Of a DNA stretch of 64,000 bases, positions 3,899 through 62,540 are shown piece by piece. Under the pieces are notes generated by a model. It made no database searches and was not told where the DNA came from. It worked only from the letters and a program-made list of their open reading frames with translations. The stretch comes from an uncultured Bacteroidota bacterium (GTDB lineage Bacteria; Bacteroidota; Bacteroidia; Bacteroidales; P3), in the NCBI GenBank assembly GCA_902762805.1, contig CACWPQ010000006.1:64695-128694 (forward strand), given 5' to 3'. Each line of letters opens with the position of its first letter. Position 1 is the stretch's first letter. A program made the translations under genes and the position numbers.

Positions 3899-5104
3899 AT
3901 GCGCATCGAAGGGCTCATCGCGGTGCGCTACCTCTTCGCCCGCCGGCAACGGTCGGTGGTGAACATCATTTCGTGGATTTCGCTCGTCGGGCTGATGGTC
4001 AGCACGGCGGCGCTGATTATAGTCCTCTCGGTCTACAACGGCATCGGCGAGCTGACCAAGAGCCTATTCAACACGTTCGATCCCGAGCTCGTCGTCGAGC
4101 CGGCCGAGGGCAAGACCTTCCGCCTGACGGAGATCCCCTACAGCACGATTGCGGGCGCCGAAGGGGTGGCCGAGGTGGTGCCGCTGGCCAGCGAGTCGGC
4201 CTGGATTACCTACAGCGACCAGCAGGCCATCGTCACCCTCCGCGGCGTCGGCGAGGGCTACGCGCGCCTCACCGGCCTCGACACCCTGCTGGCCGACGGG
4301 CGCTACGACATCTCCGACCACAGCCTCATTCTCGGCGGCGAGATATTCCACCGCCTCGGCATGCGCATCCCCTCCCCCACCCCGGCCACCGTCCACATCC
4401 CCAAGCGCGGCACCACCAGCCTCGGCATGACCATGGACGAGGCCTTCAACATCGCCTATGCCTACCCCGCGGCCAACTTCTTCATCCAGCAGGACATCGA
4501 CCGGCGCTACGTGGTGACCGACATCGCGCTGGTGCGCCGACTGATGGACTACGCGCCCGACGAGTGCACCGCCCTCGCCCTGCGCCTGGCGCACGGGGCC
4601 GACGCGGCCAAGGTGAAGCGTGAGCTCAACTCCTCACTCCTCACTCCTCACTCCCCACTCCTCATCAAAGACCGCTACGACCAGCAGCCGCTCTATTTCA
4701 AGGTGTTCCGCACCGAGCGGCTCGGCATCTACCTCATACTCTCGCTCATCGTGCTCATCTCGACGCTGAGCCTCGTGGCGTCGCTCTCGCTGCTGATTAT
4801 CAACAAGCGCGGCGACATCTTCATGCTGCGCAGCATGGGCATGACGGCGCGGCAGGTGCGCCGCTCGTTCCTGGCCGAGGGGCTGCTCATCTGTGCCGTG
4901 GCCGTGGCGGCGGGACTGCTGATTGGCTTCGTGGTCTGCTTCCTGCAGCAACAATTCGGCCTTATCCGCATGGGCGACGGCAACTTCGTGGTGGAAGCCT
5001 TCCCCGTGGCCATGCGTGCACAGGATTTCCTCTGGACCTTCCTGCTGGTGATGGTCCTGAGCTCGCTCTCGGTCGCCCTTACAGTCCGCAGGGCCCGAAT
5101 CTGA
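3899..5104 (+). CDS. FtsX-like ABC transporter permease (LolC/E family)
   Basis: N-terminus IAVRYLFARRQRSVVNIISWISLVGLMVSTAALIIVLSVYNG. Large periplasmic loop and three C-terminal TM helices. The rbfA-adjacent position is typical of Bacteroidales. Confidence 0.85.
   Translation: MRIEGLIAVRYLFARRQRSVVNIISWISLVGLMVSTAALIIVLSVYNGIGELTKSLFNTFDPELVVEPAEGKTFRLTEIPYSTIAGAEGVAEVVPLASESAWITYSDQQAIVTLRGVGEGYARLTGLDTLLADGRYDISDHSLILGGEIFHRLGMRIPSPTPATVHIPKRGTTSLGMTMDEAFNIAYAYPAANFFIQQDIDRRYVVTDIALVRRLMDYAPDECTALALRLAHGADAAKVKRELNSSLLTPHSPLLIKDRYDQQPLYFKVFRTERLGIYLILSLIVLISTLSLVASLSLLIINKRGDIFMLRSMGMTARQVRRSFLAEGLLICAVAVAAGLLIGFVVCFLQQQFGLIRMGDGNFVVEAFPVAMRAQDFLWTFLLVMVLSSLSVALTVRRARI
4625..4666 (+). 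repeat. Heptanucleotide tandem repeat (CCTCACT)x~6 inside the permease CDS
   Basis: ctcaact cctcact cctcact cctcact ccccact cctcatc, translated as ELNSSLLTPHSPLLIK. Confidence 0.85.
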
Positions 5105-5155
5105 ATGTCAAAATCTCCGCATTAGGATGGCGGATGAGGAGGGTTGCTTTCCGTG

Positions 5156-6223
5156 CTATAATATACACTTCACGCGGAAGCCGCGAGTGGTGGGCTCTTC
5201 AACAATCTCCTGGCATAGCGGACGGAGCGAGTCCTTCACCTCGCCGATGAACGATTGCTGCACCCCCTCCTTCATGAAGTCGAGCGCCACGATTTCCGAC
5301 ATCTCGCTGTAGGTCAGGCGCAGGGTGTAGGGATAGCGCGACGCCATCACCGACCCGGTCATGAAGTCCACAATCTTGTCCGCCGCCTCGCGCTTGGCGG
5401 CGATGTTGTATTTGTTGCAGAAAGCGGCCATCTGCGTGTGGATGCCCAGCATGTCGTAGTCCGCGCCGTCCACCTCGAACACCAGTTTGTGGATGCGCTG
5501 CACGAACTGCTTGGTGGCGCTGTGCACGGGGTTTTCAAATATCTGCTGCGGCGTGCCGTCCTCGTAGATGATGCCCTCGTTCATGAAGAAGATACGCGTG
5601 CTGACGTCGCGCGCGAACTTCATCTCGTGGGTGACGATGAGCATGGTCATGCCTTCGGAGGCCAGCTGTCGCATGACGCTCAGCACCTCGCCCACCATGG
5701 TGGGGTCGAGGGCGGAGGTGGGTTCGTCGAAGAGGATCACCTCGGGGTGCATGGCCAGGCAGCGGGCTATGGCCACGCGCTGCTTCTGTCCGCCGGAGAG
5801 GTCGCTTGGCATGGCGCCGGCCTTCTCGCCCATGCCCACCTTGCGCAGCAGCGTCATGGCTTCGGCCTCGGCCTCGGCGCGCGCGGTGCCGCGCAGCTTC
5901 ATCGGGGCGTAGGTCACGTTGTCGAGGATGCTCAGGTGCTCGAAGAGGTTGAAGCTCTGGAACACCATGCCCATCTTCTGACGCATTTTGTTGAGGGGGT
6001 ACCCTTTGGCCAGGATGTTCTCGCCGTCGAAGATGATTTCGCCGCCGGTGGGCGGGTCGAGCAGGTTGAGGGCGCGCAGGAAGGTGCTCTTGCCGGTGCC
6101 CGAGGGGCCTATGATGCTGATGACCTCGCCGCGCTGGATGTCGCAGTTGACATCTTTCAGCACTTTGAATATCGACCCGTCGGGGTTCACAAACTGTTTG
6201 CTCAGGTGCTTTATGGTGATCAT
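5156..6223 (-). CDS. Polar amino-acid ABC transporter ATP-binding protein with ~110-aa C-terminal extension
   Basis: Walker A GPSGTGKST, signature LSGGQKQRVAIAR, Walker B ILFDEPTSALDP. GlnQ/ArtP-like. An extra C-terminal domain follows residue ~245. Confidence 0.9.
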   Translation of the reverse strand: MITIKHLSKQFVNPDGSIFKVLKDVNCDIQRGEVISIIGPSGTGKSTFLRALNLLDPPTGGEIIFDGENILAKGYPLNKMRQKMGMVFQSFNLFEHLSILDNVTYAPMKLRGTARAEAEAEAMTLLRKVGMGEKAGAMPSDLSGGQKQRVAIARCLAMHPEVILFDEPTSALDPTMVGEVLSVMRQLASEGMTMLIVTHEMKFARDVSTRIFFMNEGIIYEDGTPQQIFENPVHSATKQFVQRIHKLVFEVDGADYDMLGIHTQMAAFCNKYNIAAKREAADKIVDFMTGSVMASRYPYTLRLTYSEMSEIVALDFMKEGVQQSFIGEVKDSLRPLCQEIVEEPTTRGFRVKCIL

Positions 6224-7868: not shown

Positions 7869-7890
7869 CAAACGTTAAATTCTCCTCTCA

Positions 7891-7932
7891 AGGCCGAACT
7901 ATTACCCTACCATTACCCTAGAAAACCCCTCC
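7891..7932 (-). repeat. REP/MITE-like element, truncated copy (TAGGG-box half only)
   Basis: Reverse complement ggaggggttttctagggtaatggtagggtaatagttcggcct matches the 5' half of the 30100 copy. The hairpin half is absent. Confidence 0.45.
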
Positions 7933-8217
7933 AAATGTAGACAGGAAGCCCGTTTTGAGAAATCGCCTTTGCAACACACTGTATTCCAGCCCACTGCAAA
8001 CACCCCTTCTCACCACTTTTGGTATTTTAACAAATTCTAACCATTTTTCATACACATCACCAATTTTCATAACAAATGTTAATCTAACGCTTTTTTGCAA
8101 AAACATAGACTCTACAAATCAAGCATGCCTGTCCGCGGCATTGCTCCAGCCGGAATCGACATTTTTTTCATCCCGCATGTCAGATTTTGCCGAAAAGGTG
8201 GGTATGTAATATGCAGA

Positions 8218-11434: not shown

Positions 11435-12157
11435 ATGCAACTTTTCTACAGCCCCGATATAACCCCCTCTGCCCTCTGCACCCTCGATCCCGAGGAGAGC
11501 CGCCACGCCGTGCGCGTGCTGCGGATGCGTCAGGGCGACCCCATCGACGTCACCGACGGCCGCGGCGCGCTGCACCACTGCACCATCCTGGAAGCCAGAG
11601 AGAAGGGCTGCGTGGTACAACCCCTCACCTCCGACCTCCGACCTCCAACCTCCGACCTCCACCTCGCCGTGGCCCCCACCAAGAACCCCTCGCGCATGGA
11701 GTGGCTGGTGGAGAAGGCCGTGGAGATGGGCGTGGGGGACATCACCCTGCTGCGGTGCGACCGCTCGGAGCGCTCGTTCCTGAAGACCGAGCGGCTGCAG
11801 AAGCTGGCCGTCAGCGCCATGAAGCAGAGCCTGCGCACCCTCCTGCCCGCCATCGGCGAGGCCGTGGTGCTGCGCGACTGGCTCCATTCAAAATTCAAAA
11901 TTCAAAATTCTGAATTAAAGTTTATCGCCCACTGCGAAGCCGGCCAGCCGCGCACGCCGCTGGCCGACCTCCTCGAGTCCGGGCGCCCCGCCACCATCCT
12001 CATCGGCCCCGAAGGCGACTTCTCCGCCGAGGAGATCGCCCTCGCCCTCGAGCTGGGCTTCCGGCCCGTCAGCCTCGGCCCCAGCCGCCTGCGCACCGAG
12101 ACCGCCGCACTCTACGCCGTGGCGGCATTCAACCTCATCAACGACCGCACCCTATGA
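11435..12157 (+). CDS. rsmE: 16S rRNA (uracil1498-N3)-methyltransferase
   Basis: MQLFYSP...EESRHAVRVLRMRQGD...VTDGRG...KNPSRMEWLVEKAVEMGV...LIGPEGDFSAEE fits the RsmE/SPOUT pattern. The CDS contains two repeat-encoded insertions. Confidence 0.88.
   Translation: MQLFYSPDITPSALCTLDPEESRHAVRVLRMRQGDPIDVTDGRGALHHCTILEAREKGCVVQPLTSDLRPPTSDLHLAVAPTKNPSRMEWLVEKAVEMGVGDITLLRCDRSERSFLKTERLQKLAVSAMKQSLRTLLPAIGEAVVLRDWLHSKFKIQNSELKFIAHCEAGQPRTPLADLLESGRPATILIGPEGDFSAEEIALALELGFRPVSLGPSRLRTETAALYAVAAFNLINDRTL
11623..11663 (+). repeat. Heptanucleotide tandem repeat (TCCGACC)x~6 inside rsmE
   Basis: cctcacc tccgacc tccgacc tccaacc tccgacc tccacc, translated as PLTSDLRPPTSDLHL. Confidence 0.85.
11886..11920 (+). 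repeat. Heptanucleotide tandem repeat (ATTCAAA)x5 inside rsmE
   Basis: attcaaa attcaaa attcaaa attctga attaaag, translated as HSKFKIQNSELKF. Confidence 0.85.
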
Positions 12158-13605: not shown

Positions 13606-13696
13606 AAGTATCCACCATTACCCATCGATGGGTAATAATGGGAAAAGACCCTACTATTACCCTAGAGAACCCCTACCATTCCCCTAGAAAACCCCG
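13606..13696 (-). repeat. REP/MITE-like element, full copy (inverted orientation)
   Basis: gtatccaccattacccatcgatgggtaataatgggaaaagaccctactattaccctagagaacccctaccattcccctagaaaacccc, between convergent genes. Confidence 0.65.
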
Positions 13697-18605: not shown

Positions 18606-20050
18606 AGCATGGTCTCCTTCAGAACGGTTTCGAGACGGGGCACGAGGCGGTCGATGTCGCCGGCGCCGAGGGTGAGCACTACATCGGGGCAGAGGGCTGG
18701 GACGAGCTCGAGGGCCTGGTCGGGGGTGCAGAGGTACTTGGACATGGTGTCCATCTTGCGGAGCACCATGGAGGAGGTGACGCCGAGGATGGGTTTTTCG
18801 CGGGCGGGATAGATGGGGAGCATGATGACCTCGTCGAGGGTCTGGAGGACGCGGGCGAAGTCGTCGGCCAGGTCGCGGGTGCGGCTGTAGAGGTGGGGCT
18901 GGAAGATGCCGACGAGGCGCTTGCCGGGGTAGAGGTAGCGGACAGACTCGATGGTGGACTGCAGTTCCTGCGGATGGTGGGCATAGTCGTCGATGTAGAC
19001 GAGGTCCTTCTCGCGGATGCGGTAGTCGAAGCGTCGCTGGACGCCCTGGAAGGTCTTCAGCCCGTGGCGGAGCTGGTACTGGTCGAGGCCGCAGGCGAGG
19101 GCGATGGCGGCGGCGGCGACGGCGTTTTCGACGTTGAAGAGGGCGGTGCCCTGCAGCTCGAGGTCGTAGAGCACGCCGTCGGGGGTGCGGAGGTCGAAGA
19201 AGAGGTTGCCGCTATAGGTGCGTACGTTGATGGCGTAGTAGTCGGCTTCGACGCCGCGGGCGGTGTAGGTGGTCAGTGGCCAGTGGTCAGTGGTCAGTGG
19301 CCGGTGGTCAGTGGTCAGTGGCTGGTGGTCGTGGTCGTGGTGGTGGTGGTGGTCGTGGTGGTGGTGCCCGTGGGGGAGGAGGGATTCGCCGTCGGCGGTG
19401 ATAAAGGTGCCGTCCTTGATGAGGAGGCGTCCGGAGGGGTCGACCTGGGAGGCGAACTGGAGATAGGCTTCGAGCATGTGGCGGTGGTCGCCGTAGATGT
19501 CGAGGTGGTCAGGGTCGGTGGCGGTGACGACGGCCATGTGGGGATGGAGCTGGAGGAAGGAGCGGTCGTATTCATCGGCCTCGACAACGATGAGGTCGCT
19601 CTGGGGGTCGACGTGGAGGTTGGACTGGAAGTTCTTGCTTATGCCGCCGAGAAAGGCGTTGCACCCGCAGGAGGCCTTGCTGAGCAGGTGGGCGATCATG
19701 GCGGATGTGGAGGTCTTGCCGTGGGAGCCGGCGACGGCGATGCAACGTTTGCCGCGGGTAAGCTCGCCGAGCACCTGGGAGCGCTTCTCCATTTTCACGC
19801 CGCGAGCCAGCAGGGCTTGGAACTCAAGGGTATCGGTGGGGACGGCGGGGGTGTAGACGACGAGGTCGATATCGGCGGGCAGGCGGTCGGGGTTGTCGTC
19901 GAAATGGATGTCGATGCCTTCGGCCTGCAGCCGGTCGGTCAGGGGCGAGGGTGTGCGGTCGTAGCCGCAGACGGTGTCGCCACGCTGATGGAAGAAGCGC
20001 GCGAGGGCGCTCATGCCGATGCCTCCTATGCCAAGGAAGTAGTAGTTCAT
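18602..20050 (-). CDS. murC: UDP-N-acetylmuramate--L-alanine ligase, with ~37-aa repeat-encoded His-rich insertion
   Basis: MNYYFLGIGGIGMSALARFF and VAGSHGKTSTSAMIAHLL (the Mur ligase P-loop). Insertion HGHHHHDHHHHHDHDHQPLTTDHRPLTTDHWPLTT. Confidence 0.95.
   Translation of the reverse strand: MNYYFLGIGGIGMSALARFFHQRGDTVCGYDRTPSPLTDRLQAEGIDIHFDDNPDRLPADIDLVVYTPAVPTDTLEFQALLARGVKMEKRSQVLGELTRGKRCIAVAGSHGKTSTSAMIAHLLSKASCGCNAFLGGISKNFQSNLHVDPQSDLIVVEADEYDRSFLQLHPHMAVVTATDPDHLDIYGDHRHMLEAYLQFASQVDPSGRLLIKDGTFITADGESLLPHGHHHHDHHHHHDHDHQPLTTDHRPLTTDHWPLTTYTARGVEADYYAINVRTYSGNLFFDLRTPDGVLYDLELQGTALFNVENAVAAAAIALACGLDQYQLRHGLKTFQGVQRRFDYRIREKDLVYIDDYAHHPQELQSTIESVRYLYPGKRLVGIFQPHLYSRTRDLADDFARVLQTLDEVIMLPIYPAREKPILGVTSSMVLRKMDTMSKYLCTPDQALELVPALCPDVVLTLGAGDIDRLVPRLETVLKETML
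19265..19366 (-). repeat. Heptanucleotide repeat (CACTGAC)x9 followed by (CAC/GAC)n trinucleotide tract inside murC
   Basis: Coding strand: caccagc cactgac cactgac caccggc cactgac cactgac cactggc cactgac cacctac. This tract is preceded by cac/gac codons encoding HGHHHHDHHHHHDHDH. Confidence 0.9.
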
Positions 20051-21153
20051 TTTGCAATCTTTTCTATTTGGTCAACGATTTTGTCGGCGGCGCCGCGGAC
20101 AGCCAAGGTCTGTATGGCCTGGCGCATGGCCTGCATGCGTGGCTGGTCCTTGAGGAGTTCGTCCGCCAGGGGGAGCGCTTTGGCGCTGCATTCGGCGTCG
20201 GGCACCATGAGTGCGGCGCCTTTGTCGACCAGCGCGAGGGCGTTTTTGGTCTGATGGTCTTCGGCGACGTTGGGCGAGGGGATGAGGACGACGGGCTTGC
20301 CGACGAGGCAGAGCTCGCTGATGGCGATGGCACCGGCGCGGGAGACGACGAGGTCGGCGGCGGCGTAGGCGAGGTCCATGCGCTGGATGAACTGGTGGAC
20401 TTTGACGGGGCAGGTGTCGGGGTGGCGGCGGATGGCGGCCTGGGCCTCGTCGAAGCCCCAGCGGCCGGTCTGCCAGATGTACTGCACCTGGGCGGAGGCG
20501 AGCGAGGGGAGTGCGGCGAGCATCATCTGGTTGATGCTGCGAGCGCCGAGGCTGCCGCCGACGACGAGGACGGTGGGCATGGAGGGGGAGAGGGCGAAGT
20601 GGGCGAGGCCCTCCTCGCGCGTGCAGGTCATCTGCTCGATATCGGCGCGGACGGGGTTGCCGGTGAAGACGATTTTGTCGGCGGGGAAGAAGCGCTGCAT
20701 GCCGTCGTAGGCGACGCAGATGGTGCGAGCGCTGCGGGAGAGGAGCTTGTTGGTGAGGCCGGCGTAGGAGTTTTGCTCTTGGAGGAGGGTGGGATAGCCG
20801 AGCGAGGCGGCGGCTTTGAGGGTGGGTTCGGAGGCGAAGCCGCCGACGCCGACGACGACGTCGGGGCGGAAGTCGGCGAGGATGCGTTTGACTTTGGCGC
20901 GGCTGCGGATCATCTTCAGGGGGAGCTGGAGGTTCTTCCAGATGTTGGCGGGGGTGAGCTTGCGCTGCAGGCCGGCGATGGGGAGGCCCTCAATGGGATA
21001 GCCTGCGGCCGGCACCTTCTCCATCTCCATCTTGCCTTCGGCGCCGACGAAGAGGATGTCGGCGTCGGCATGGCGAGCCCGGATGGCGTTGGCGATTGCG
21101 ATGGCGGGGAAGATGTGTCCGCCGCTGCCTCCTCCGCTGATGATGACTTTCAT
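20047..21153 (-). CDS. murG: Undecaprenyldiphospho-muramoylpentapeptide beta-N-acetylglucosaminyltransferase
   Basis: MKVIISGGGSGGHIFPAIAIANA, the GT28 N- and C-terminal patterns, and dcw position. Confidence 0.95.
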   Translation of the reverse strand: MKVIISGGGSGGHIFPAIAIANAIRARHADADILFVGAEGKMEMEKVPAAGYPIEGLPIAGLQRKLTPANIWKNLQLPLKMIRSRAKVKRILADFRPDVVVGVGGFASEPTLKAAASLGYPTLLQEQNSYAGLTNKLLSRSARTICVAYDGMQRFFPADKIVFTGNPVRADIEQMTCTREEGLAHFALSPSMPTVLVVGGSLGARSINQMMLAALPSLASAQVQYIWQTGRWGFDEAQAAIRRHPDTCPVKVHQFIQRMDLAYAAADLVVSRAGAIAISELCLVGKPVVLIPSPNVAEDHQTKNALALVDKGAALMVPDAECSAKALPLADELLKDQPRMQAMRQAIQTLAVRGAADKIVDQIEKIAK

Positions 21154-21166: not shown

Positions 21167-21197
21167 TAATTTAAACTAATTTTTAACTATTTTTAAG
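21167..21197 (-). repeat. A/T-rich ~10.5-bp tandem repeat x3 forming the murG 5' leader
   Basis: taatttaaac taatttttaac tatttttaag (plus strand), starting 13 nt upstream of the murG ATG. Confidence 0.5.
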
Positions 21198-21214
21198 TGT
21201 ATCTTCTGGGTTTT

Positions 21215-21297
21215 GGTAGGGGAATGGTAGGGGTTCTGTAGGGGAATACAAAGGCAATGTTACATTATTACCCATTATTACCCAAGGCTGGTTACTT
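21215..21297 (+). repeat. REP/MITE-like element, variant copy inside the dcw cluster (between ftsW and murG)
   Basis: ggtaggggaatggtaggggttctgtaggggaatacaaaggcaatgttacattattacccattattacccaaggctggttac. Confidence 0.6.
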
Positions 21298-21299
21298 TA

Positions 21300-22505
21300 T
21301 CATTCTTCGGGTGGTTTTTGGGGTTCGACTTGTGGTTCGGGGGAGGGTGCGGGAAGGGGTTCTGTTTCGGAGTTGGTGTCGGCGGCGATGGACTGGATGA
21401 TGCCGAAGCCGCAGCCGAGGAAGAGGTAGGCGGTGCCGCCGTAGGAGATGAAGGGGAGGGTCTGTCCGGTGACGGGGAGGACGCCGACGGCGACGGACAT
21501 GTTGACCAGCGCCTGTATGTATATCATAGTGCCCAGACCGGCCACGGTCAGTGCGCCGAAGCGTCCGCGGCAGCGTCGTGCCAGTCGCACACAGCGGAAG
21601 TAGAAGAAGCTGTAGAGCAGGAATACGCCGACTCCCCCCACGAGGCCGAACTCCTCGAGGATGATGGCGTAGATGAAGTCGTTGTGGGCCTGGGTCATGA
21701 GGCGAGCGTGGATGGTGTTGCCCGGGCCTTTGCCGAGGAGGCCGCCGCGTGCGATGGCCATGCGTGCCATGTTCTCTTGGGTGAGTTCGTCGGGGTTGGG
21801 GTTGATCCAGGAGTGGACACGGTGGCCCCATGTCTCGGCGCGCTCGAGCACCTGGGCTGTCTGGGGCTGGTTGTCGGCGTAGAGGGAGCGGTCGTAGCGG
21901 TAGTAGGTGATGGCCAATCCTGCCACGACGGCGACGAGGCCGACCAGGAAGAGGCGCCACCACCAGCGGCGGTTGACGCCGCCGAAGAGCATCATCAGGA
22001 AGCAGGAGAGGAAGATGAGTGCGGCGGTGGAGAAGTTCTGCGGGAGCACCAGCACTACGACGACACCGATGTAGATGAGCAATTGGAGGAAGGTGCCGAG
22101 GTCGCCCATTTGGTCCTTTTTGAAGGTCATCATGCGTGCGATGAAGAGGACCAGGAACAGCTTGGCCACCTCGGAGGGTTGGAACTGTCCGATGCCTGGC
22201 ACGCGGAACCAGCGGCTGCCCAGGGCGAGCATCACAATGAGAATCACCGCCGAGGCCCAATAGCCCAGCAGGGCGAAGCGGGAGAAGTAGCGGTAGTCGA
22301 CGCGCGAAAGGAAAACCGCCGCCACCCAGGTGGCAGCCACGATGGCCATGTGGCGCAGGAAGAGCGACGAGGGGGTCTTGCTGGCATACTCGGTGTAGGC
22401 ATAGAGTCCGATGGAGCTGTAGACCTCGACCAGCGAGACGATGGTCAGCAGCAGAAAGAGGACCCAAAGGGTACGGTCGCCACGGAATATGTTGGTCAGT
22501 TTCAT
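21300..22505 (-). CDS. ftsW: SEDS-family peptidoglycan glycosyltransferase FtsW
   Basis: Multi-TM protein with FtsW/RodA/SpoVE motifs (HNDFIYAIILEEFG, PVTGQTLPFISYGGT) in the dcw position. Confidence 0.93.
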   Translation of the reverse strand: MKLTNIFRGDRTLWVLFLLLTIVSLVEVYSSIGLYAYTEYASKTPSSLFLRHMAIVAATWVAAVFLSRVDYRYFSRFALLGYWASAVILIVMLALGSRWFRVPGIGQFQPSEVAKLFLVLFIARMMTFKKDQMGDLGTFLQLLIYIGVVVVLVLPQNFSTAALIFLSCFLMMLFGGVNRRWWWRLFLVGLVAVVAGLAITYYRYDRSLYADNQPQTAQVLERAETWGHRVHSWINPNPDELTQENMARMAIARGGLLGKGPGNTIHARLMTQAHNDFIYAIILEEFGLVGGVGVFLLYSFFYFRCVRLARRCRGRFGALTVAGLGTMIYIQALVNMSVAVGVLPVTGQTLPFISYGGTAYLFLGCGFGIIQSIAADTNSETEPLPAPSPEPQVEPQKPPEE

Positions 22506-22508
22506 AGG

Positions 22509-23048
22509 TTATAACTCATTGACTTCGCGACAGAAGCTGGCGGCGCGGTCGGAGGCGGACTGCTCGGAGGGGCAGGCTGGGGAGTAGAGGACGCGCACGT
22601 CGTCGGCCTCGTAGCGGTAGGCGTGGTGGAGCGCCTCGTGCATGGTGTCGCAGGGGATGATGTTGGGCACGACGCCGTCGAAAGCCTGATGCATGCAGGG
22701 GCTGTCGCCGCCCACGATAAGCAGCATGCGAACCTTGCGCAGGGCGGTGGGCACGAGGCGGCTGTAGTCGACCTCGTCCTTGGGTGCATCGGCAATCCAG
22801 ATGATGCCGCCCTGGGTGCTTTCGAGGGCGTACCAGGTGGCGTTGACCGAACGGGAGGCGGCGTCGCAGATGTATTCGCGGCCGAGGATGCGTGCCACGA
22901 ACTCGAGGCGGTGGCGCGTGTCCTCGAGGCGGCTGAAGCATGCGCGGAGGGAGGCGTTGCGGATCACCTTGAGGCGGTGGGCGTCGATGCCGGAGAGGCC
23001 GGTGTGTATTCTTTCGCGGCCTTGGGTGGCCAGGGTTTCGATTGTCAT
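22509..23048 (-). CDS. MurD C-terminal-domain-only homolog (179 aa), occupying the murD slot; possibly a remnant
   Basis: HRLEFVARILGREYICDAASRSVNATWYALEST...LLIVGGDS...VRVLYSPACPSEQSASDRAASFCREV aligns to domain 3 of MurD (HR.E.V...NDSKATN...LLSPACAS.D.F). The N-terminal Rossmann domain and central GTNGKT ATPase domain are absent, and no other frame encodes them. Confidence 0.75.
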   Translation of the reverse strand: MTIETLATQGRERIHTGLSGIDAHRLKVIRNASLRACFSRLEDTRHRLEFVARILGREYICDAASRSVNATWYALESTQGGIIWIADAPKDEVDYSRLVPTALRKVRMLLIVGGDSPCMHQAFDGVVPNIIPCDTMHEALHHAYRYEADDVRVLYSPACPSEQSASDRAASFCREVNEL

Positions 23049-23087
23049 GTTGATGGGTTGATATGTTGACAGGTTGATATGGGGTGG
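23049..23087 (-). repeat. Octanucleotide tandem repeat (ATATCAAC-like x4) forming the entire mraY-murD' spacer
   Basis: Coding strand: ccacccc atatcaac ctgtcaac atatcaac ccatcaac ATG. Confidence 0.8.
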
Positions 23088-24266: not shown

Positions 24267-24294
24267 AATTCCTAATTTCTAATTCCTAATTGAC
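24267..24294 (-). repeat. Heptanucleotide repeat (AATTAGG/AATTAGA x4) spanning the murE stop and the mraY start
   Basis: Coding strand: tc aattagg aattaga aattagg aattATG. The murE TAG stop and the mraY ATG both sit inside repeat units. Confidence 0.8.
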
Positions 24295-39422: not shown

Positions 39423-39544
39423 GCGGATGGTTTTTAACATTATTTAGAACAAGTAACGCCGCGGAGGGCGAAAAAGTATGCCACGGGTGGAATTCTTTGC
39501 CAACATGATGATATACAGCATGTTGGGCCAGACGGAAAAAAGAT

Positions 39545-39668
39545 GAGATTTTTTGGCAAAAAAACTGAAAAAAGCCCGTTTTTGGCCCGAATACAAGTAG
39601 TGGACAATCAGCGAATTATAGGCATCCTCTTCTTCTCCTCTTTTTCTCTTCTTCTTCCTCTCTTGGGG
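39545..39668 (+). repeat. Second intergenic repeat family (E-element), copy 1
   Basis: gagattttttggcaaaaaaactgaaaaaagcccgtttttggcccgaatacaagtagtggacaatcagcgaattataggcatcctcttcttc.... About 75% identical by eye to 60276..60380. Confidence 0.55.
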
Positions 39669-46350: not shown

Positions 46351-46387
46351 TCCCCCACCACCACCCTACACAACCCACCCCACACCA

Positions 46388-46473
46388 GGACCCATCCAGA
46401 ACCCATCTAGGAGTCATCTAGGACCCATCTAGGAGTCATCTAGGAGTCATCTAGGACCCATCCAGGACCCATC
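46388..46473. repeat. 11-bp tandem repeat, ~7.8 copies (GGAGTCATCTA / GGACCCATCTA)
   Basis: ggacccatcca gaacccatcta ggagtcatcta ggacccatcta ggagtcatcta ggagtcatcta ggacccatcca ggacccatc. Intergenic, between two terminators. Confidence 0.9.
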
Positions 46474-48375: not shown

Positions 48376-49299
48376 CTAGAAGTCTTTTATATTAAATGTA
48401 GGGGCTGCCACGCTGGCGGCGCGGCGCTTGCCCTTGGGAGTCTCTTTGATGCGGCTGGCGTCGGGCTTGTGGTGCGACTCGTGGCCGGCCGTCGGCTTCC
48501 GGATGCCGAAGTAGGTCTTGTCCAGGTGCAGCAGCCGCGTGCGGAGCGTGTAGTTCTCGAAATCGAGTATCCACTCCGGATCGAAAGTCTGGTATAGGAA
48601 GCGGCACTCGAAGTGCAGGTGCGGCCCGGTGCTGTTGCCCGTGCTTCCACCAAGCCCCAGCACCTCGCCGGCGGCCACCTGCTGGTGGGGCTGCACATTG
48701 ATTTTCGACAGGTGCCCGTAGAGCGTCTCCAACCCGTTCGGGTGGCGCACCACCACGCAGTTGCCGTACCCACCCATGCGCGCCGCCACACGCACTATGC
48801 CGCCGAAAGCCGCATAGACCGGGTCGCCGGTCGCAAGGGCGATGTCCACCCCGTGGTGGCCCCGCTGCCACCGCCACCCATACTCCGAGGTCTTCGTGTT
48901 GCGCACCGGGAAGCAGAAGTCCGACGTATCCGCCATCAGGCGCAGGATGATTTCGTCTGGCAGCATGTCCACCTGCGTGCGTCCGTGGGGGTTGACGCGG
49001 TGCTGCGGGAACGCGTCGTACCACATCGGCACCATCGCCCGGTCCATCGCGGGCCGTGCCGCGGCGGAGTCCTTGGGCGCCGGCGCGGGTTGCACCGCCT
49101 TCCGCTCGGGCGTCGCCTTGGGCTTGGGTTTGTTGGGGTCCACCTTCTTGACCACCTTGGGCGGGTTCTTCGCGCGCTCCAGGCGCACGGCGATGAGCGA
49201 GTCGAAATACGACTGCTGCGCCTCCACGCGCCCCAGCCCGCAGAGCAGCACCAGCAGCAACACCAGCGTGCGCCGCAGGCGCGCGATGGGGATACCCAT
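48376..49299 (-). CDS. Alternative model: M23 peptidase translated from the internal in-frame ATG
   Basis: The ATG at 49299 gives MGIPIARLRRTLVLLLVLLCGLGRVEAQ/Q, a canonical Sec signal peptide, followed by a Pro/Lys linker and the M23 domain. Confidence 0.4.
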   Translation of the reverse strand: MGIPIARLRRTLVLLLVLLCGLGRVEAQQSYFDSLIAVRLERAKNPPKVVKKVDPNKPKPKATPERKAVQPAPAPKDSAAARPAMDRAMVPMWYDAFPQHRVNPHGRTQVDMLPDEIILRLMADTSDFCFPVRNTKTSEYGWRWQRGHHGVDIALATGDPVYAAFGGIVRVAARMGGYGNCVVVRHPNGLETLYGHLSKINVQPHQQVAAGEVLGLGGSTGNSTGPHLHFECRFLYQTFDPEWILDFENYTLRTRLLHLDKTYFGIRKPTAGHESHHKPDASRIKETPKGKRRAASVAAPTFNIKDF

Positions 49300-50670
49300 C
49301 TGCTCGCGGTATTTGGCCACCGTGCGCCGCGCCAGCGGGTAGCCCTGCGCGTTGAGCATCCGCGTCAGCGCGTCGTCCGAGAGCGGCGCCTGCTTGTCCT
49401 CGGCGGCGATGGCGTCGGCCAGATGCTGCTTGATGGCTTCCACCGACACCTCCTCGCCTCCGTCGCCCATCATGCCTTTGGAGAAGCACTCTTTGAGCGG
49501 TATGGTGCCGAAGTCGGTCTGGAGGTATTTGCTGTTGGCCATGCGCGAGATGGTGCTGATGTCCAGCCCCGTGGCCTCGGCCACTTCGCGCTGCCGCAGG
49601 GGCTGCAGCTGGTCGGGGTCGCCCGTGAGCAGGTAGCGGCGCTGGTGGCGCACCAGGTAGCGCATGACGCGCACGATGGTGTCGTGCCTCTGCTGCAGCA
49701 GGTCGATGAAGCCCTGTGCGTCGTCCCGCTTGGTGCGCAGGAACTGCAGCGTCTCGCGGTCCCCCTTCGCCTTTTCCATCTCGGCCAGCATGTCGGTATA
49801 GTAGCTGTTGAGCGAGAGGCGAGGCAGGTGGCTGTCGTTGAGGTAGAAGCTGAGCTGCCCGTCGTGCTGCTGCAGCACGATGTCGGGCGTGATGGTCTGT
49901 GCCGCGAGGTCGCTGTCGGCCTCCGAGCTGCCGGGTTTGGGGTTGAGGCGCCGGATGAGGGCGGTGGCTGCGTCGAGCTCCTGCTGGCTGATGCCGAGGT
50001 CGGCGCAGATGCGCTCGTAGCGGTGGTTGGCCAGGTCGTCGAAGTGGCGCTCCACGATGTCGAGCGCGCGGTCCACCTCGTCCGTTGCCTCCATCCGCTG
50101 CAACTGCAGCAGCAGGCATTCCTGCAGGCTTCGGGCGCCGATGCCGGGCGGGTCGAGGCTTTGGATGATGCGCAGCACGCCGAGCACCTCCTCGCGCGAG
50201 GCGTCGATGCCTTGGCGGAAGGCCAGGTCGTTGGTGAGCAGGTCGAGGTCGCGGCCCAGGTAGCCCGCATCGTCGAGCGAGCCGATGAGCTCGTCGGCTA
50301 TGCGCTGCTGCCGCTCGTCGAGGTCGCGGCTGACCAGCTGCGAAGCGAGGCGGTCGGCAAACGAACTGCTGTCGGCCACCACGAATTCGCGCTGCCGCGC
50401 ATTGGGGTCGCTCTCGAGGTGCTCGCGGTAGTCGTATCCGAAGTCTTCCTCGTCGCTGTCCCAGTCCGAGCTGTCGTTGTCGGCAGCCGAGACGATGTCG
50501 TCGATGTTGGCTGTGTCGTCGGGTGCTTCGGCATCCAGAAGGGGGTTCTTCTCTATCTCCTCCTTGATGGCCTGTTCGAGGTCAGTGACAGGCAACTGCA
50601 GCAGACGCATCAGCTGTATCTGTTGCGGTGATAGCCTCTGCTGCAGTTGCTGTCGCTGAACTTGTTTCAT
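48376..50670 (-). CDS. rpoN: RNA polymerase sigma-54 factor continuing in frame into a signal-peptide/TM segment and an M23 (LytM) peptidase domain
   Basis: N-terminus MKQVQRQQLQQRLSPQQIQLMRLLQLP (region I). RpoN box ARRTVAKYREQMGIPIARLRR, then with no stop TLVLLLVLLCGLGRVEAQ. Later HHGVDIAL...GNCVVVRHPNGLETLYGHL...GSTGNSTGPHLHFE is the M23 domain. Confidence 0.8.
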   Translation of the reverse strand: MKQVQRQQLQQRLSPQQIQLMRLLQLPVTDLEQAIKEEIEKNPLLDAEAPDDTANIDDIVSAADNDSSDWDSDEEDFGYDYREHLESDPNARQREFVVADSSSFADRLASQLVSRDLDERQQRIADELIGSLDDAGYLGRDLDLLTNDLAFRQGIDASREEVLGVLRIIQSLDPPGIGARSLQECLLLQLQRMEATDEVDRALDIVERHFDDLANHRYERICADLGISQQELDAATALIRRLNPKPGSSEADSDLAAQTITPDIVLQQHDGQLSFYLNDSHLPRLSLNSYYTDMLAEMEKAKGDRETLQFLRTKRDDAQGFIDLLQQRHDTIVRVMRYLVRHQRRYLLTGDPDQLQPLRQREVAEATGLDISTISRMANSKYLQTDFGTIPLKECFSKGMMGDGGEEVSVEAIKQHLADAIAAEDKQAPLSDDALTRMLNAQGYPLARRTVAKYREQMGIPIARLRRTLVLLLVLLCGLGRVEAQQSYFDSLIAVRLERAKNPPKVVKKVDPNKPKPKATPERKAVQPAPAPKDSAAARPAMDRAMVPMWYDAFPQHRVNPHGRTQVDMLPDEIILRLMADTSDFCFPVRNTKTSEYGWRWQRGHHGVDIALATGDPVYAAFGGIVRVAARMGGYGNCVVVRHPNGLETLYGHLSKINVQPHQQVAAGEVLGLGGSTGNSTGPHLHFECRFLYQTFDPEWILDFENYTLRTRLLHLDKTYFGIRKPTAGHESHHKPDASRIKETPKGKRRAASVAAPTFNIKDF

Positions 50671-56201: not shown

Positions 56202-56345
56202 GGGAGTGAAAAGGAGTGAGAAAGGAACTTGTGTGGGGGTGAAAAGGAGTGAGAAAGGAGTGGAAGGGAGTGAAATGACAATAGCATCGTCTTCATCATT
56301 TGTCCTCTCACTCCCTCTCACTCCCTCTCACTCCCTTTCACTCCT
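56202..56345. repeat. Purine-rich GGAGTGA decamer array and complementary TCACTCC decamer array (long interrupted inverted repeat)
   Basis: Left arm: gggagtgaaaaggagtgagaaagga ... ggtgaaaaggagtgagaaaggagtggaagggagtgaaatg. Right arm: tcctctcactccctctcactccctctcactccctttcactcc. The 21-mer gtgaaaaggagtgagaaagga occurs twice (56206 and 56239). Confidence 0.8.
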
Positions 56346-58143
56346 GTTTTTTTTAATTTTCAATTTTCAATTTTCAATTTCCCACTCCCAGGTAGTCCTC
56401 TTCTCGCACTACGGCGGCTTCCATGCCGACACCTTCGCACTCGCCATGCGCCTCGACCTCGCCCCCGAAGGCGAACCCTTCACCATCCACTACACCCTCA
56501 ACGGCGGCACCCCCACCGAGTGCGACCCCGTCTACTCCGCCCCCCTCCCACTCACCTCCGCCCTCTACTCGCCCTCGGCCGCCTACCGCATACAGAACGT
56601 GCCCGACGACCGCTGGTTCCAGCCCGACTCCGTCGAGCGCATCATCGTCGTCCGCGCTGCCGCCTTCGACAGCACCGGCACCCGTCGTTCGCCGGTCAAC
56701 ACACAGTCCTTCTTCATCGACAGCCTCCTGCGGCGCACCATCCCCCTGCCCGTCATCTCGCTCTGCGCCGACTCGCTTGCGCTCTTCGACTACGACACCG
56801 GCATCCTGGTCCGAGGCCAATGCTTCGACCCCCGCCACCCCTTCCGCACGGGCAACTACTTCCAGCGCGGCATCCTATGGGAGCGCCCCGCCAGCTTCGA
56901 ATACTACGACAGCAGCGGTGCCTCGCTGGCCATCGACTGCGGCCTCCGTATCCATGGCAACAGCCAGCGGGTGCTCAGCCAGAAAGGCCTTTCGCTCTAC
57001 GCCCGCAACCTCTACGGCGCCTCCCACTTCGACCTCCCCTTCTTCGCCGACAGCCCCCTCGAGCGCTTCCAGCGCCTGGTGCTTCGGCCGTGGAAGACTT
57101 CGTGGAGCGCCGCCGGTGTCGAAGACTGGCTCTGTCAGCGTATCGCCGAGCCCCTGCGCTTCGACCGCCTCGCCTCGCGCCCCGTCGTCCTCTTCCTCAA
57201 TGGCGAATACTGGGGCATCTACTTCCTCGAGGAGAAGGCCGACGAGCACTATGTCCAGGACCACTACCGCGTCGACAACCGCGCCGTCAGCTTTCTCGCC
57301 TACTGGGGCGATGAGGTGGAGAACGGCTCCAACACCCGTTGGAACGCTCTCTATGACTGGCTCCTCAACGCCGACCTCACATCCACTCCCAACTACAACT
57401 ATCTCGCCTCGCAGGTCGACACAGGTGCCCTGATGGACTATATGCTGATGCAGATCCTTGTGGCCAACGACGACTGGCCTATCTGCAACGTGCGCTTCTG
57501 GGCCGCGCCCGGTATGCCCTGGCGTTGGGTCTTCTTCGATGGCGACGGCACCCTGGCCACCCTCCCCGAGAGCCCGGCCATACTGGACCGCATGACCTAT
57601 GCCGACGCCGGCTTCACCACACGCACCTCACCCAAAGCCACCCTGCTGTTCCGGCGACTGCTGTCGAACCGCAGCTTCCTCGAGCGGTCGGCCCAGCGCA
57701 TGGCCGAACTGGTCGACAGCCACTTCAGCTACCGACGCACCGCACCGCTGCTCAACGAGATAGCCTCGCAGGTGGTGGCCGAAGTGCCCTACCAAATCAA
57801 GCGCTTCGACGCCCCCTCGTCGATGATGGCCTGGCGCACCGCCATCGCCGCCATCGACTCCTACCTCCGCACCGAGCCGCAGTTGATGCTTGAGGAATAC
57901 CGCCGCTACTTTGGCCTGCAACCCCCAGAGCCACAACTTGCCGTGGACGAGAGCGGCATGCTACGCTTCGACGCCGGCACCACGCAGGTCATCCTCTACG
58001 ACATCAACGGCCACATCCTGGCCCAACTGTCGGTGCCCGACGGCGCCACCTCGCTCCAGCTCCCAGCCATGCCGCCCGGCCGCTACTTCATATTCACCGA
58101 CAACAGTGCCACCGCCATCCTGTGGACCATCCGCAATTCCTGA
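56275..58143 (+). CDS. CotH-family protein (atypical kinase fold) with T9SS-like C-terminal domain
   Basis: The CotH region includes VLRPWKTSWSAAGVEDWLCQRIAEPL...VVLFLNGEYWGIYFLEEKADEHYVQDHY. C-terminus LRFDAGTTQVILYDINGHILAQLSVPDG...PPGRYFIFTDNSATAILWTIRNS. The start at ATG 56275 is uncertain because the N-terminus is repeat-encoded. Confidence 0.8.
   Translation: MTIASSSSFVLSLPLTPSHSLSLLFFLIFNFQFSISHSQVVLFSHYGGFHADTFALAMRLDLAPEGEPFTIHYTLNGGTPTECDPVYSAPLPLTSALYSPSAAYRIQNVPDDRWFQPDSVERIIVVRAAAFDSTGTRRSPVNTQSFFIDSLLRRTIPLPVISLCADSLALFDYDTGILVRGQCFDPRHPFRTGNYFQRGILWERPASFEYYDSSGASLAIDCGLRIHGNSQRVLSQKGLSLYARNLYGASHFDLPFFADSPLERFQRLVLRPWKTSWSAAGVEDWLCQRIAEPLRFDRLASRPVVLFLNGEYWGIYFLEEKADEHYVQDHYRVDNRAVSFLAYWGDEVENGSNTRWNALYDWLLNADLTSTPNYNYLASQVDTGALMDYMLMQILVANDDWPICNVRFWAAPGMPWRWVFFDGDGTLATLPESPAILDRMTYADAGFTTRTSPKATLLFRRLLSNRSFLERSAQRMAELVDSHFSYRRTAPLLNEIASQVVAEVPYQIKRFDAPSSMMAWRTAIAAIDSYLRTEPQLMLEEYRRYFGLQPPEPQLAVDESGMLRFDAGTTQVILYDINGHILAQLSVPDGATSLQLPAMPPGRYFIFTDNSATAILWTIRNS
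56354..56381 (+). repeat. Heptanucleotide repeat (CAATTTT = TTTTCAA family, x4) in the CotH N-terminal hydrophobic segment
   Basis: taatttt caatttt caatttt caatttc, translated as LIFNFQFSIS. Confidence 0.85.
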
Positions 58144-58622: not shown

Positions 58623-59497
58623 CGCACGGCGCTGATCCAGCGCTCTTTGCCGCGGAAGTCGGTGTGAACCGTGGGGCGGAACCCATAGCCACGCAGCAGG
58701 TCGGCGGTCTCGTCGGCCAATGCCTCGTTGATTTCCAACGCCAGCAGCCCCGTGTCCGTCAAGTGCTTGGACGCTATCTGTGCAATGGCGCGGTAGAACA
58801 CCAGCGGGTCGCTGTCGTCGACGAAGAGCGCCATCGCCGGCTCATGGTCCAGCACATTGGCACGCATCGCCGTCCGCTCGCACTGCCGCACATACGGGGG
58901 GTTGGAGACAATAATTGAAAATTGAGAATTGAAAGTTGAAAGTTCCGGCGCGAGTATGTCAGCTTGCAAGAAGTTGACATCCGCCCCGTTGCGCTCGGCG
59001 TTGCGCCGCGCCACGGCAAGGGCCTCCTCCGAGAGGTCCACCGCCGTCACCTGCGCCTCGGGCCACGCCTTCTTCAGCGCGATGGCAATGCATCCGCTGC
59101 CCGTGCAGAGGTCCAGCACACCTCCCTCTCCCATGGACACGGGGCCGAGCGCGAGACACCGGACCATCTCCTCGGTCTCCGGCCTGGGTATCAGCACACT
59201 GGGGTTCACCTCGATGCGGCAACCGCAGAAGTCCACATGCCCGACGATATGCTGTATCGGGCGCTGCCTCCCCAGGTCTTCCAGCGCCCAGTGGAAACGC
59301 AGGAGGTCGCTCTGATTGATGGTACTATCCTTGTTCACAAGCAGTTGCACCCTGTCCCACCCCAGCCACGCCTCGCAGAGCATCTCCACGAAAGCATTCA
59401 CCTCCCCGACGCCATACAGGCCATCCAACTCCGCATGCATCAGCGCGATAACATCGCGCATGCGGTTGGAACGGAAACGGAGGTTGTCTGTATTCAT
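58619..59497 (-). CDS. prmC: Peptide chain release factor N5-glutamine methyltransferase
   Basis: ATG at 59497. [14 protein letters not shown] (SAM motif) and IVSNPPYV (the NPPY catalytic motif). ATGA overlap with rnhA. Confidence 0.9.
58913..58947 (-). repeat. Heptanucleotide repeat (TTTTCAA family, x5) inside prmC, directly N-terminal to the NPPY motif
   Basis: Plus strand: aattgaa aattgag aattgaa agttgaa agttccg. Translated on the minus strand as [18 protein letters not shown]. Confidence 0.85.
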
Positions 59498-61802: not shown

Positions 61803-61822
61803 CGGTTATAGGTTATTGAATT

Positions 61823-62500
61823 ATGAGGCTTGACATTTTGACCTTGTTTCCCAACATGATGCAGATGTTCTTCGAGGAGAGCATCATCAAGCGGGCGCAG
61901 AAGAAGGAGCTCGTGGAGGTACACTTCCACAACCTGCACGACTACTCACTCAACCGCTATGGCTCGGTCGACGACTACCCCTACGGCGGCGTGGCGGGCA
62001 TGGTGATGTGCGTGGAGCCCATCGCCAACTGCATCGAAGGCCTCCTGCGCGAACGCCCCTACGACGACATCATCTACACCGCCCCCGACGGCGAGATGTT
62101 CTCGCAACCGATGGCCAACCAGTTGTCGCTCAAGCAGAACCTGATGATCCTCTGCGGCCACTACAAGGGTGTGGACGAGCGCATACGCGAACATTTCATC
62201 ACGCGCGAAATCTCCATCGGCGACTACGTGCTCACCGGTGGCGAGCTGGCGGCAGCCGTCATTGCCGACACCGTCATCCGCCTCGTCCCAGGCGTCATTG
62301 GCGACGAGCAATCGGCGCTGGCCGACTCGTTCCAAGACAGCCTCGTGGCACCGCCCGAATACACGCGCCCGCCGGAGTTCCGCGGCTGGCGCGTGCCCGA
62401 CGTGCTCCTCAGCGGCAACCACGCCAAGATAGAGCAGTGGCGCATGGAGCAGGCCATCGCCCGCACCAAAGAACGCCGCCCTGAATTGCTTAAGCATTAA
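61823..62500 (+). CDS. trmD: tRNA (guanine37-N1)-methyltransferase
   Basis: [13 protein letters not shown]...[14 protein letters not shown]...[13 protein letters not shown]...[12 protein letters not shown]. Confidence 0.94.
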
Positions 62501-62540
62501 CATATCATCGTATCAAAATATCAACGTATCAACAGTCATC
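62501..62540 (+). repeat. Octanucleotide tandem repeat (ATATCAAC family, x5) forming the entire trmD-clpP spacer
   Basis: catatcat cgtatcaa aatatcaa cgtatcaa cagtcatc ATG. Confidence 0.8.

Follow-up and report, generated by a model that had tools for sequence, protein, structure and literature searches.

Short tandem repeats are far more frequent than chance would allow in a 64-kb stretch of DNA from an uncultured Bacteroidales bacterium (contig CACWPQ010000006.1, positions 64,695 to 128,694; hereafter the window), where they lie inside housekeeping genes, in signal peptides and in the spacers between genes. We consider it probable that these tracts are inherited arrays of the heptanucleotide type, with units of 7 nt and less often of 8 or 10-11 nt, which arose by slippage at local seeds and were then filtered by selection. 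The mechanism that we infer would run as follows. Slipped-strand mispairing or unequal exchange would amplify a short local seed in place, and the same process would keep the copies of an array alike, while selection would remove tracts wherever they are harmful. Within genes, the places where tracts would survive are limited to disordered linkers, loops ahead of beta-strands and the hydrophobic core of signal peptides; their orientation would be limited to the one in which the unit is free of stop codons in all three phases, and their length would change only in multiples of 3 nt (three heptamers make 21 nt, or 7 residues). Within operons, A-rich, G-poor and weakly structured spacers would persist right up to the next start codon. 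As a special case, a pair of oppositely oriented arrays would have produced a long hairpin in the 5' part of a CotH reading frame.

How strong is the excess? Tandem Repeats Finder (TRF) returned a tract at all 14 places listed in a preliminary description of the sequence, and the unit families named there proved correct. Ten tracts of period 7 with at least three copies are present in the window, compared to a mean of 0.38 (maximum 2) in 50 Markov-3 shuffles, which bears out the claim of an excess far above chance. Counting every non-triplet period from 5 to 12, the window holds 18 tracts and the 50 shuffles 0.76; period 7 accounts for 10 of the window's tracts, period 8 for 2, period 10 for 2 and period 11 for 4. 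Sixteen tracts have a TRF row and consist of head-to-tail units of 5-11 nt, with the roughly three or more copies by which long simple-sequence repeats (LSSRs) are defined. Arrays of 3.3-3.7 exact copies occur at 4629, 11886, 56304 and 56355, the tracts at 35600, 37306, 23049 and 62499 are imperfect (71-81% matches; several tracts overall reach 65-81%), and the weakest tract, at 21170, has 2.5 copies. The range of 3-9 copies proposed earlier is exceeded at its upper end by the murC array, with about 14 heptamers. A few unit families recur, namely the TTTTCAA class at four sites and ACCTCCG, CTCACTCC and ATATCAAC at two sites each. Our gene assignments agree with the earlier placement of tracts in housekeeping genes, signal peptides and intercistronic spacers. 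The 16 tracts, with positions, units and copy numbers from TRF, are as follows.

4629-4664, plus strand: ACTCCTC x5.1, in the LolC/E-like (FtsX-family) permease gene (3899-5104).
11627-11665, plus strand: ACCTCCG x5.7, first tract in rsmE (11435-12157).
11886-11910, plus strand: TTCAAAA (TRF consensus ATTCAAA) x3.6, second tract in rsmE.
19269-19373, minus strand: GTGGTCA x13.7 with a 21-nt superperiod, the murC array.
21170-21196, minus strand: weak 10/11-mer x2.5, in an A-rich leader 15 nt upstream of the murG start.
23049-23079, minus strand: ATATCAAC-type 8-mer x3.9, most of the 39-nt spacer from the mraY stop to a 179-residue MurD C-terminal fragment.
24266-24291, minus strand: AATTAGG (TRF consensus TAATTCC) x3.7, at the murE-mraY junction.
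35600-35622, minus strand: imperfect 7-mer x3.3, TGAAAAATGAAAACTGAAAG in the sense direction, from the fucosidase stop to the YigZ/IMPACT ATG.
37306-37333, minus strand: TTTTCAA (TRF consensus TTGAAAA) x4.0, in the fucosidase gene.
38293-38316, minus strand: ACCTCCG (TRF consensus CGGAGGT) x3.4, in a THUMP-like S-adenosylmethionine (SAM) methyltransferase gene.
46387-46473, no strand assigned: 11-mer AGGACCCATCT x7.9, in the gap between the convergent genes for a Por-tail protein and HU.
56203-56275, plus strand: 10-mer x6.9, GGAGTGA(R)AA repeats of 9-11 nt, after the stop of a uvrD-like gene and inside a long CotH open reading frame (ORF); 5' arm of the CotH composite.
56304-56344, plus strand: CCTCTCACTC x4.1 (10-mer), reverse complement of the 5' arm; 3' arm of the CotH composite.
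56350-56380, plus strand: a T8 run, then TTTTCAA x4.4, core of the CotH signal peptide (LLFFLIFNFQFSISHS, then QVV).
58913-58941, minus strand: TTTCAAY (TRF consensus AATTGAA) x4.1, in prmC.
62499-62534, plus strand: (C/G)(A/T)ATCAAC-type 8-mer x4.5, most of the 40-nt trmD-clpP spacer.

Contigs of the same species, which come from several studies and assemblers, were found through exact matches to window proteins in public assemblies and are 97-99.97% identical to the window at the nucleotide level; a sister group (L095, L096, L099 and L101) is about 90-93% identical. Tracts were pulled out of each assembly by their flanking sequence. Every tract that is covered by another assembly recurs there, in 1-10 independent metagenome assemblies; for the tract at 21170 the comparison was not usable. 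The short tracts have the same length in 2-10 assemblies each, and in the sister group where it covers them, with point substitutions as the only differences, and the permease tract is of equal length in a further independent contig from a metagenome collection (L116). Only the two long arrays vary in length. Alleles of the murC array measure 92, 119, 122 and 125 nt, and all differences (-27, +3 and +6 nt) are multiples of 3; those of the 11-mer array at 46387 measure 114, 136 and 147 nt, or -22 and +11 nt relative to the window. Mutability that rises with copy number is the ordinary behaviour of simple-sequence arrays and not that of a phase-variation switch. The preliminary view that these are not ordinary contingency loci thus holds, since the short tracts are invariant across assemblies and in sister species of about 90-93% identity.

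Inside genes, the tracts occupy particular kinds of protein segment. That of the permease encodes NSSLLTPHSPLL, flanked by the periplasmic domain on one side and the FtsX transmembrane domain on the other (Pfam, NCBIfam), in a segment just 3 residues above the length found in homologs. In a related species with 81% protein identity (L115:1213-2411) this tract is exactly 7 nt shorter, and the LolC/E-like gene is frameshifted and split into ORFs of 276 and 117 residues; the observation comes from a single metagenome contig and may reflect a real pseudogene, a minority allele or an error. The first rsmE tract gives rise to LTSDLRPPTSDLH, a linker that joins the PUA domain to the SPOUT domain and of which residues 65-71 have a predicted local distance difference test (pLDDT) score below 50 in the AlphaFold model. 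The second encodes SKFKIQNSE, modelled as a loop (153-160) that leads into the strand LKFI (161-164). The prmC tract encodes the 12 residues directly N-terminal of the catalytic NPPY motif, a region modelled as a short helix, a loop and a strand (193-198); homologs have a segment of equal length at this place, many of them reading QFSILNSQFSII, and tract length is unchanged in three assemblies. ADLQPPTS, encoded by the methyltransferase tract, lies just upstream of the SAM-binding VADLTGGMG, and its length is invariant in ten assemblies. The fucosidase tract forms the hydrophobic core of a signal peptide (MKRKSILLLLLLFIFQLSIFKSLCA), where assemblies differ by substitutions and not in length. 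Among the hosts are murC, rsmE, prmC, the lolC/E-like permease and the SAM methyltransferase; the fucosidase and CotH are the only secreted products.

A constraint by stop codons is evident in the orientation of these tracts. In seven of the eight intragenic tracts the sense-strand unit is free of stop codons in every phase, and the opposite strand would carry TGA for five of the stop-free tracts; tracts are oriented as they are because the unit of the opposite strand would contain this stop. The exception is murC. Its sense strand reads (TGACCAC TGACCAC xGGCCAC) x3, with (PLTTDHx)3 as the encoded peptide; CAC/GAC triplets for a His/Asp run come next, and each third unit is altered to CAG, CGG or TGG exactly where TGA would be in frame. 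The (PLTTDHx)3 segment, made of three 21-nt super-units, is found only in the window species, where it sits within a His-rich insert that is shared by the clade. This insert, 20-40 residues rich in His, Asp and Glu, lies in the middle domain of MurC in the window and in the relatives L001-L006 (for example HGHHHHDHHHHHDHDH; 19330-19380, minus strand) and is lacking in other Bacteroidales; it looks like a metal-binding segment.

Much of the recurrence of unit families is explained by units that are free of stops and encode tolerable peptides, such as FSIFNFQ from TTTTCAA and TSDLRPP from ACCTCCG. Both ACCTCCG tracts adjoin a second, downstream copy of their own Asp-Leu codons (GACCT), with ADL and VADLTGG in the methyltransferase and TSDL and TSDLHLAVAP in rsmE. 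In alignments with homologs, most intragenic tracts replace a segment of near-equal length. Their description as insertions therefore fails for the rsmE loop, prmC and permease tracts, which carry 0-3 residues more than the homologs.

Are the tracts recent, or have they been inherited over longer distances? In a MurC scan with one genome per species, the closest relatives of the window are exclusively uncultured rumen Bacteroidales metagenome-assembled genomes (MAGs), with MurC identities of 85% (L001), 74% (L002 and L003), 65-66% (L004 and L005) and 59% (L006). Alignment of rsmE and prmC with their orthologs reveals orthologous tracts in relatives down to about 65-70% identity, which runs counter to the earlier suggestion of repair scars. 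At the rsmE linker site the unit is ACCTCCG in the window, ACCTCCA (x11) in L108, AACTCCG in L109 and ATTCTCC in L110; homologs differ in length by 7 or 14 residues (21 or 42 nt), the linker of P0012/L108 being 14 residues longer. At the loop site, L111 has TTCAAAA x7.1 (+21 nt) and L110 CTCAATT x5. Heptamer tracts built from other units occupy both sites in RsmE homologs down to about 70% identity, and the rsmE gene of L002 has a tract at neither site and a single seed, ATTCAAAAATTC, at the loop site. Units at orthologous sites drift together and follow the G+C content of the genome. Since tract positions are orthologous across genera while units drift with G+C, we conclude that the tracts descend vertically; those of rsmE and prmC are old, evolve in concert and are no recent deposits. 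Length changes by whole units are seen in the array at 46387 (-22 and +11 nt), in the rsmE loop (+21 nt) and in the L115 permease tract (-7 nt). Together with the seeds in relatives, these make slippage, one of the sources put forward in the preliminary description, the most plausible. A depositing mechanism, also put forward there, finds no such backing: tracts of the same family share no flanks, and relatives show single-copy seeds.

Between genes, five tracts within operons end 0-15 nt before an ATG, namely those of mraY, the murD C-terminal fragment, murG, yigZ and clpP. At the murE-mraY junction the tract supplies the last murE codons (QLGIRN), the TAG stop and the 5-nt gap before the mraY ATG, and its length is constant in ten assemblies; the same junction has an AATTAAG-type array (TRF consensus GAATTAA) x3.6 in L003 and a degenerate heptamer remnant in L001. 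The tract at 23049 ends at the ATG of the MurD C-terminal fragment and is likewise of constant length in ten assemblies, and relatives have ATCAAC motifs at this junction or a spacer of 3 nt (L002 and L003). The tract at 35600 covers the fucosidase stop and ends at the YigZ/IMPACT ATG, with constant length in eight assemblies including the sister species, and that at 62499 ends 8 nt before the clpP ATG, with constant length in two. Upstream of murG, L001 has another 11-mer array (ATACCTACAGG x3), which lies between ftsW and murG, about 70 nt before the murG start. Further gene junctions with heptamer arrays were found in L004 and L006, and arrays a few nucleotides upstream of start codons also occur in L003, L004 and L006. 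For the 11-mer array at 46387 no RNA structure is predicted (z = 0.02), and a search of the window at the Rfam gathering thresholds returned no family, which leaves the tracts outside known RNAs.

All five start sites abutted by tracts are A-rich and G-poor on the sense strand, with A at position -3 in each. In the dcw clusters of 80 Bacteroidota species, A exceeds T on the sense strand in 56 of 74 tracts. Initiation in Bacteroidia depends on low mRNA structure and upstream adenines, without Shine-Dalgarno pairing (PMC6847099). The composition of the spacers suits a Bacteroidia host because these bacteria use no Shine-Dalgarno pairing and tune initiation by low structure and adenines; a benefit for translation may follow from this.

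The fragment downstream of mraY deserves a remark of its own. No full-length murD is present in the dcw cluster; between mraY and ftsW lies a 179-residue ORF (22509-23048, minus strand) whose similarity to MurD is confined to the C-terminal domain (TIGR01087 positions 291-421 of 441, E = 2e-17). It has no Pfam match, is 39-72% identical across the clade and occupies the same position in L001-L006 and L081-L090.

The most elaborate arrangement is the composite at 56203-56380, in the 5' part of the CotH gene. Its 5' arm encodes GVKRSEK-type repeats in the CotH ORF, and pairing of its two arms gives a hairpin of about 60 bp (-73 kcal/mol, z = -5.9), which is followed by a U8 run in the window. 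Two further species, L112 (92% protein identity) and L113 (58%), have both arms as well; their matching hairpins fold at -123 and -77 kcal/mol, respectively, and where one arm has more copies, so does the other. The CotH frame is open through both arms in the window, in L112, in L113 and in the homolog P0242, and the unit length of the arms varies between 9, 10 and 11 nt, keeping TGA out of frame. The mature CotH protein starts at QVVLFSH, and homologs, whose signal peptides are ordinary, have theirs end at this same point. L114, at 84% identity, has no arms and a single CTCTCACTCC in an ordinary signal-peptide coding region. In our reading, a local seed and an inverted copy of it expanded within the 5' end of the gene. 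The hairpin appears to be conserved and might act in attenuation or in coupling to the uvrD-like gene upstream, or have no role. With its U8 run, the window hairpin resembles an intrinsic terminator of the upstream uvrD-like gene. As the sole interpretation of 56203-56357, a terminator was rejected: the ORF is open through the arms, the U run is not conserved (interrupted in L112, absent in L113), and the T run and TTTTCAA units code for the core of the signal peptide.

Is this a peculiarity of one lineage, as was first supposed? We surveyed 1.43 Mb around murC from 80 Bacteroidota species and found period 7 to be the commonest, with 71 tracts compared to 5 in shuffles; period 8 is represented by 16 tracts and period 11 by 10. 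With 1.6 period-7 tracts per 10 kb, the window exceeds the survey average about threefold and stays inside the survey range; its density is above that of shuffles but within what other Bacteroidota show. Pedobacter (L022 and L039), Mucilaginibacter (L069), Saprospiraceae (L052) and several rumen MAGs have 1.9-2.8 period-7 tracts per 10 kb. With period 7 commonest across 80 species and some loci equally dense or denser, the label lineage-specific cannot be kept. The distribution is patchy: L001, the nearest relative, has no period-7 tract in 21 kb, and L108, a sister species of 90% identity, has six in 20.8 kb. Units such as AATTGAA, CAATTAA, CTCACTC and AACTGAC are found in distant Bacteroidota. 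Included among the six of L108 is a 20-copy heptamer array (CCCACTG/ACCACTG; 20258-20397) in a MiaB-like radical-SAM gene, with a unit of the same family as that of the murC array in the window. The tracts of the window are a further case of known heptanucleotide simple-sequence repeats.

Can other explanations account for the same observations? The metagenome-type assembly had raised the idea of an assembly or polishing artefact, for which we found no supporting point and in which we place practically no belief. The same tracts are present in SPAdes NODE, MEGAHIT k87/k141, STEW19 and LIUQ22 scaffolds, in Logan and in a JGI metagenome contig, orthologous tracts exist in other species, and each tract is shorter than a sequencing read. 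We rejected this reading as independent assemblies reproduce the tracts, which, rather than vanishing in an independent assembly as the preliminary description had allowed they might, recur across assemblies and assemblers. That the tracts are contingency loci, switching genes by copy number through phase variation, strikes us as very improbable. Gain or loss of one heptamer does shift the frame, the L115 permease tract is 7 nt shorter in a frameshifted gene, and the murC and 11-mer arrays are polymorphic in length. However, the short tracts keep one length in all assemblies and in the sister species, every murC allele is in frame, the genes concerned are housekeeping genes (murC, rsmE, prmC and lolC/E-like) whose switching off would be harmful, and the L115 case is a single metagenome contig of another species.

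A greater, if still small, chance attaches to the proposal that ready-made arrays are copied from site to site by a small mobile element, ectopic gene conversion or a repeat-depositing enzyme. Few unit families recur, and they do so in unrelated genes and on both strands; the rsmE linker SEFRTQNSEL of relatives (P0014 and P0015) is close to the loop-tract peptide SEFRIQNSKFKIQNSEL of P0008; similar units (AATTGAA, CAATTAA, CTCACTC and AACTGAC) turn up in distant Bacteroidota; some tracts swap sequence at constant length; and MacGregor proposed horizontal spread for TAACTGA repeats (PMC4679880). Yet neither flanks nor terminal motifs nor target-site duplications are common to sites of one family, single-copy seeds occupy the same sites in related genomes, orthologous positions with drifting units indicate vertical descent, and recurrence is largely explained by stop-free units and tolerable peptides. 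For the heptamer tracts, a mobile element resembling a miniature inverted-repeat transposable element (MITE) or a repetitive extragenic palindrome (REP) was rejected, as aligned flanks of the same family share nothing. We also regard as unlikely, though it is the best placed of these alternatives, that the intergenic tracts are cis-acting sites in mRNA for a repeat-binding factor (S1, a cold-shock protein or a CsrA-like protein) that sets downstream translation or coupling. In its favour, five tracts end 0-15 nt before start codons in operons, lengths are strictly kept across strains and sister species, the murE-mraY junction tract is conserved across species, A exceeds T on the sense strand in the 56 of 74 dcw tracts, and TAACTGA repeats provide a precedent (PMC4679880). 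But the unit differs between sites and even between orthologous sites, leaving no single readable motif; the window's ordinary start regions are just as rich in A and just as weakly folded; at the junction of mraY and the MurD fragment, 3 nt of spacer are enough in relatives; and the bias of A over T may reflect general sense-strand composition.

Several points weigh against inherited arrays built by slippage and selection. Slippage, as proposed, does not in itself account for the preference for 7 nt. The near-zero added length of several intragenic tracts is not predicted by simple expansion and may require compensating deletions or templated changes during transient misalignment. Exact two-copy heptamers number 10 where 5 are expected, about a 2-fold excess, from which a raised birth rate of tracts is not obvious. 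Start regions built from tracts fold at a mean of -1.7 kcal/mol compared to -4.3 for other start regions, a difference that is not significant (p = 0.057, n = 5). Our analysis covers about 64 kb of the host genome. Stop avoidance and AT-richness, finally, may not suffice to account for the same families at unrelated sites and in distant phyla. A more specific activity, be it ectopic conversion or a variant of a polymerase or repair system that works in a 7-nt register, might keep or copy arrays in a patchy set of Bacteroidota, cyanobacteria and Beggiatoaceae, with the arrays co-opted as structure-free stop/restart pads and as building blocks of signal peptides and linkers, and the CotH hairpin acting as a regulatory RNA or DNA structure; we think this unlikely as well, with a chance that we would put low.

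How do the tracts compare with repeat systems already described? According to the accounts given in PMC4679880 and PMC4692102, heptanucleotides are the most abundant class of LSSRs in many bacteria (Mrazek, Guo and Shah 2007), and the genomes richest in them in that survey were those of Burkholderia, cyanobacteria, actinobacteria and Xanthomonas. As far as these accounts describe them, LSSRs share with the window head-to-tail units of non-triplet length, 7 nt being the commonest, a strong excess, patchy occurrence among lineages, polymerase slippage as the proposed origin and no tie to genes for host interaction. The present case differs from the LSSRs so described in its host, an uncultured rumen Bacteroidales bacterium with a G+C content of 61%, and in that arrays are often inside housekeeping genes, with orthologs traceable across genera.

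A second system is that of TAACTGA direct repeats, found in marine Beggiatoaceae, cyanobacteria and five Bacteroidetes (MacGregor 2015, PMC4679880). Like our tracts, these are heptamers, repeated 2-6 times or more, most of which lie close before a start codon and lack a Shine-Dalgarno sequence; some arrays extend over the stop codon of the preceding gene, the orientation of intragenic copies is set by the stops in the unit, intragenic copies lie at the periphery of proteins, and essential operons are affected, one array being next to murG (PMC4679880). TAACTGA itself has no copy in the window on either strand and was found in tandem only in L022 among the loci fetched. The window differs by its many coexisting unit families and by arrays that are demonstrably orthologous and old, whereas TAACTGA repeats were possibly transferred. 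Mazel et al. are said to have described, in 1990, the cyanobacterial short tandemly repeated repetitive (STRR) units CCCCAGT, TTGGTCA and CAACAGT. G-rich heptamers are known as GGGGA(T/C)T in Nostoc and GGGAATC in Xanthomonas (PMC4692102). These heptamer arrays are mostly intergenic, occupy the same positions in related species with varying length and sequence, and occasionally form inverted pairs capable of stem-loops (PMC4692102), all of which resembles the tracts studied here. None of STRR1-3, GGGAATC and GGGGATT occurs in tandem in the window and, unlike the Nostoc and Xanthomonas heptamers, the window's heptamer tracts are not G-rich and cannot form quadruplexes. With the contingency loci of host-adapted pathogens such as Haemophilus influenzae (PMC2651432) they have in common non-triplet tandem repeats in reading frames or 5' regions; in contrast to those loci, the short tracts are without length variation within the population, murC stays in frame, and the genes affected are housekeeping genes.

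Separate from the tracts is a dispersed intergenic element of about 85-100 bp, present at 455-540 (plus strand), 13610-13695 (minus), 21205-21300 (plus), 30095-30190 (plus) and 33945-34040 (plus), in a degenerate form at 7870-7940 (minus), and also at L108:1495-1531 and L109:138-179. Its 3-4 direct 11-bp repeats GGTAGGGGAAy place a G4 run every 11 nt; behind them come the palindrome TTACCCA-N4-TGGGTAA and, next to it, GGATACTTTTGCA, which resembles the -7 promoter motif of Bacteroidetes. TAGGGGWW occurs 20 times compared to 3 expected. These GGTAGGGGAAy arrays form a family of their own that was absent from the preliminary list, and they are the sole repeats of the window with G4 runs. The element may serve as a promoter combined with an operator, or may be MITE-like.

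Some further features of the window were noted. Its G+C content is 61%. The compact gene map was drawn from reading frames picked by third-position G+C and places the dcw cell-wall and division cluster on the minus strand at about 14.6-29.8 kb. ARAGORN found no tRNA or tmRNA gene in the window, and a scan of 20-25 kb for sigma-70 promoters and terminators was uninformative, promoters of the Bacteroidetes type being expected in this host. At 48376-50670 (minus strand), a single ORF of 764 residues encodes a complete sigma-54 (RpoN, residues 1-470) fused to an M23 peptidase domain at the C-terminal end (about 580-700), and is called likewise in the independent assemblies L093, L098 and L103. A polypyrimidine tract of about 40 nt, rich in TCT and TCC (39625-39664), lies in the gap that separates a small rubredoxin gene from the gene at 38532-39440 and is of equal length in all assemblies. 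Past the permease gene, contig L116 continues with sequence whose counterpart in the window is about 58 kb distant (L116:9031-9285 matches window 63243-63497), which suggests a rearrangement or a strain difference in gene order.

What do the tracts mean for the biology of these bacteria? They explain several oddities of rumen Bacteroidales MAGs, such as low-complexity segments in housekeeping proteins, split genes (the L115 LolC/E-like gene) and over-long N-termini (CotH), and such features should not be mistaken for assembly errors or for phase-variation switches. They also constitute a natural series, in which orthologous arrays can be traced from about 99% nucleotide identity to about 65% protein identity. 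This series allows the birth, uniformity, G+C drift and decay of arrays to be measured, and bears on the question of why 7 nt is preferred, which has stood since the 2007 survey. The spacers that abut start codons, in turn, can be used to test the role of leaders built from repeats in translation initiation without Shine-Dalgarno pairing.

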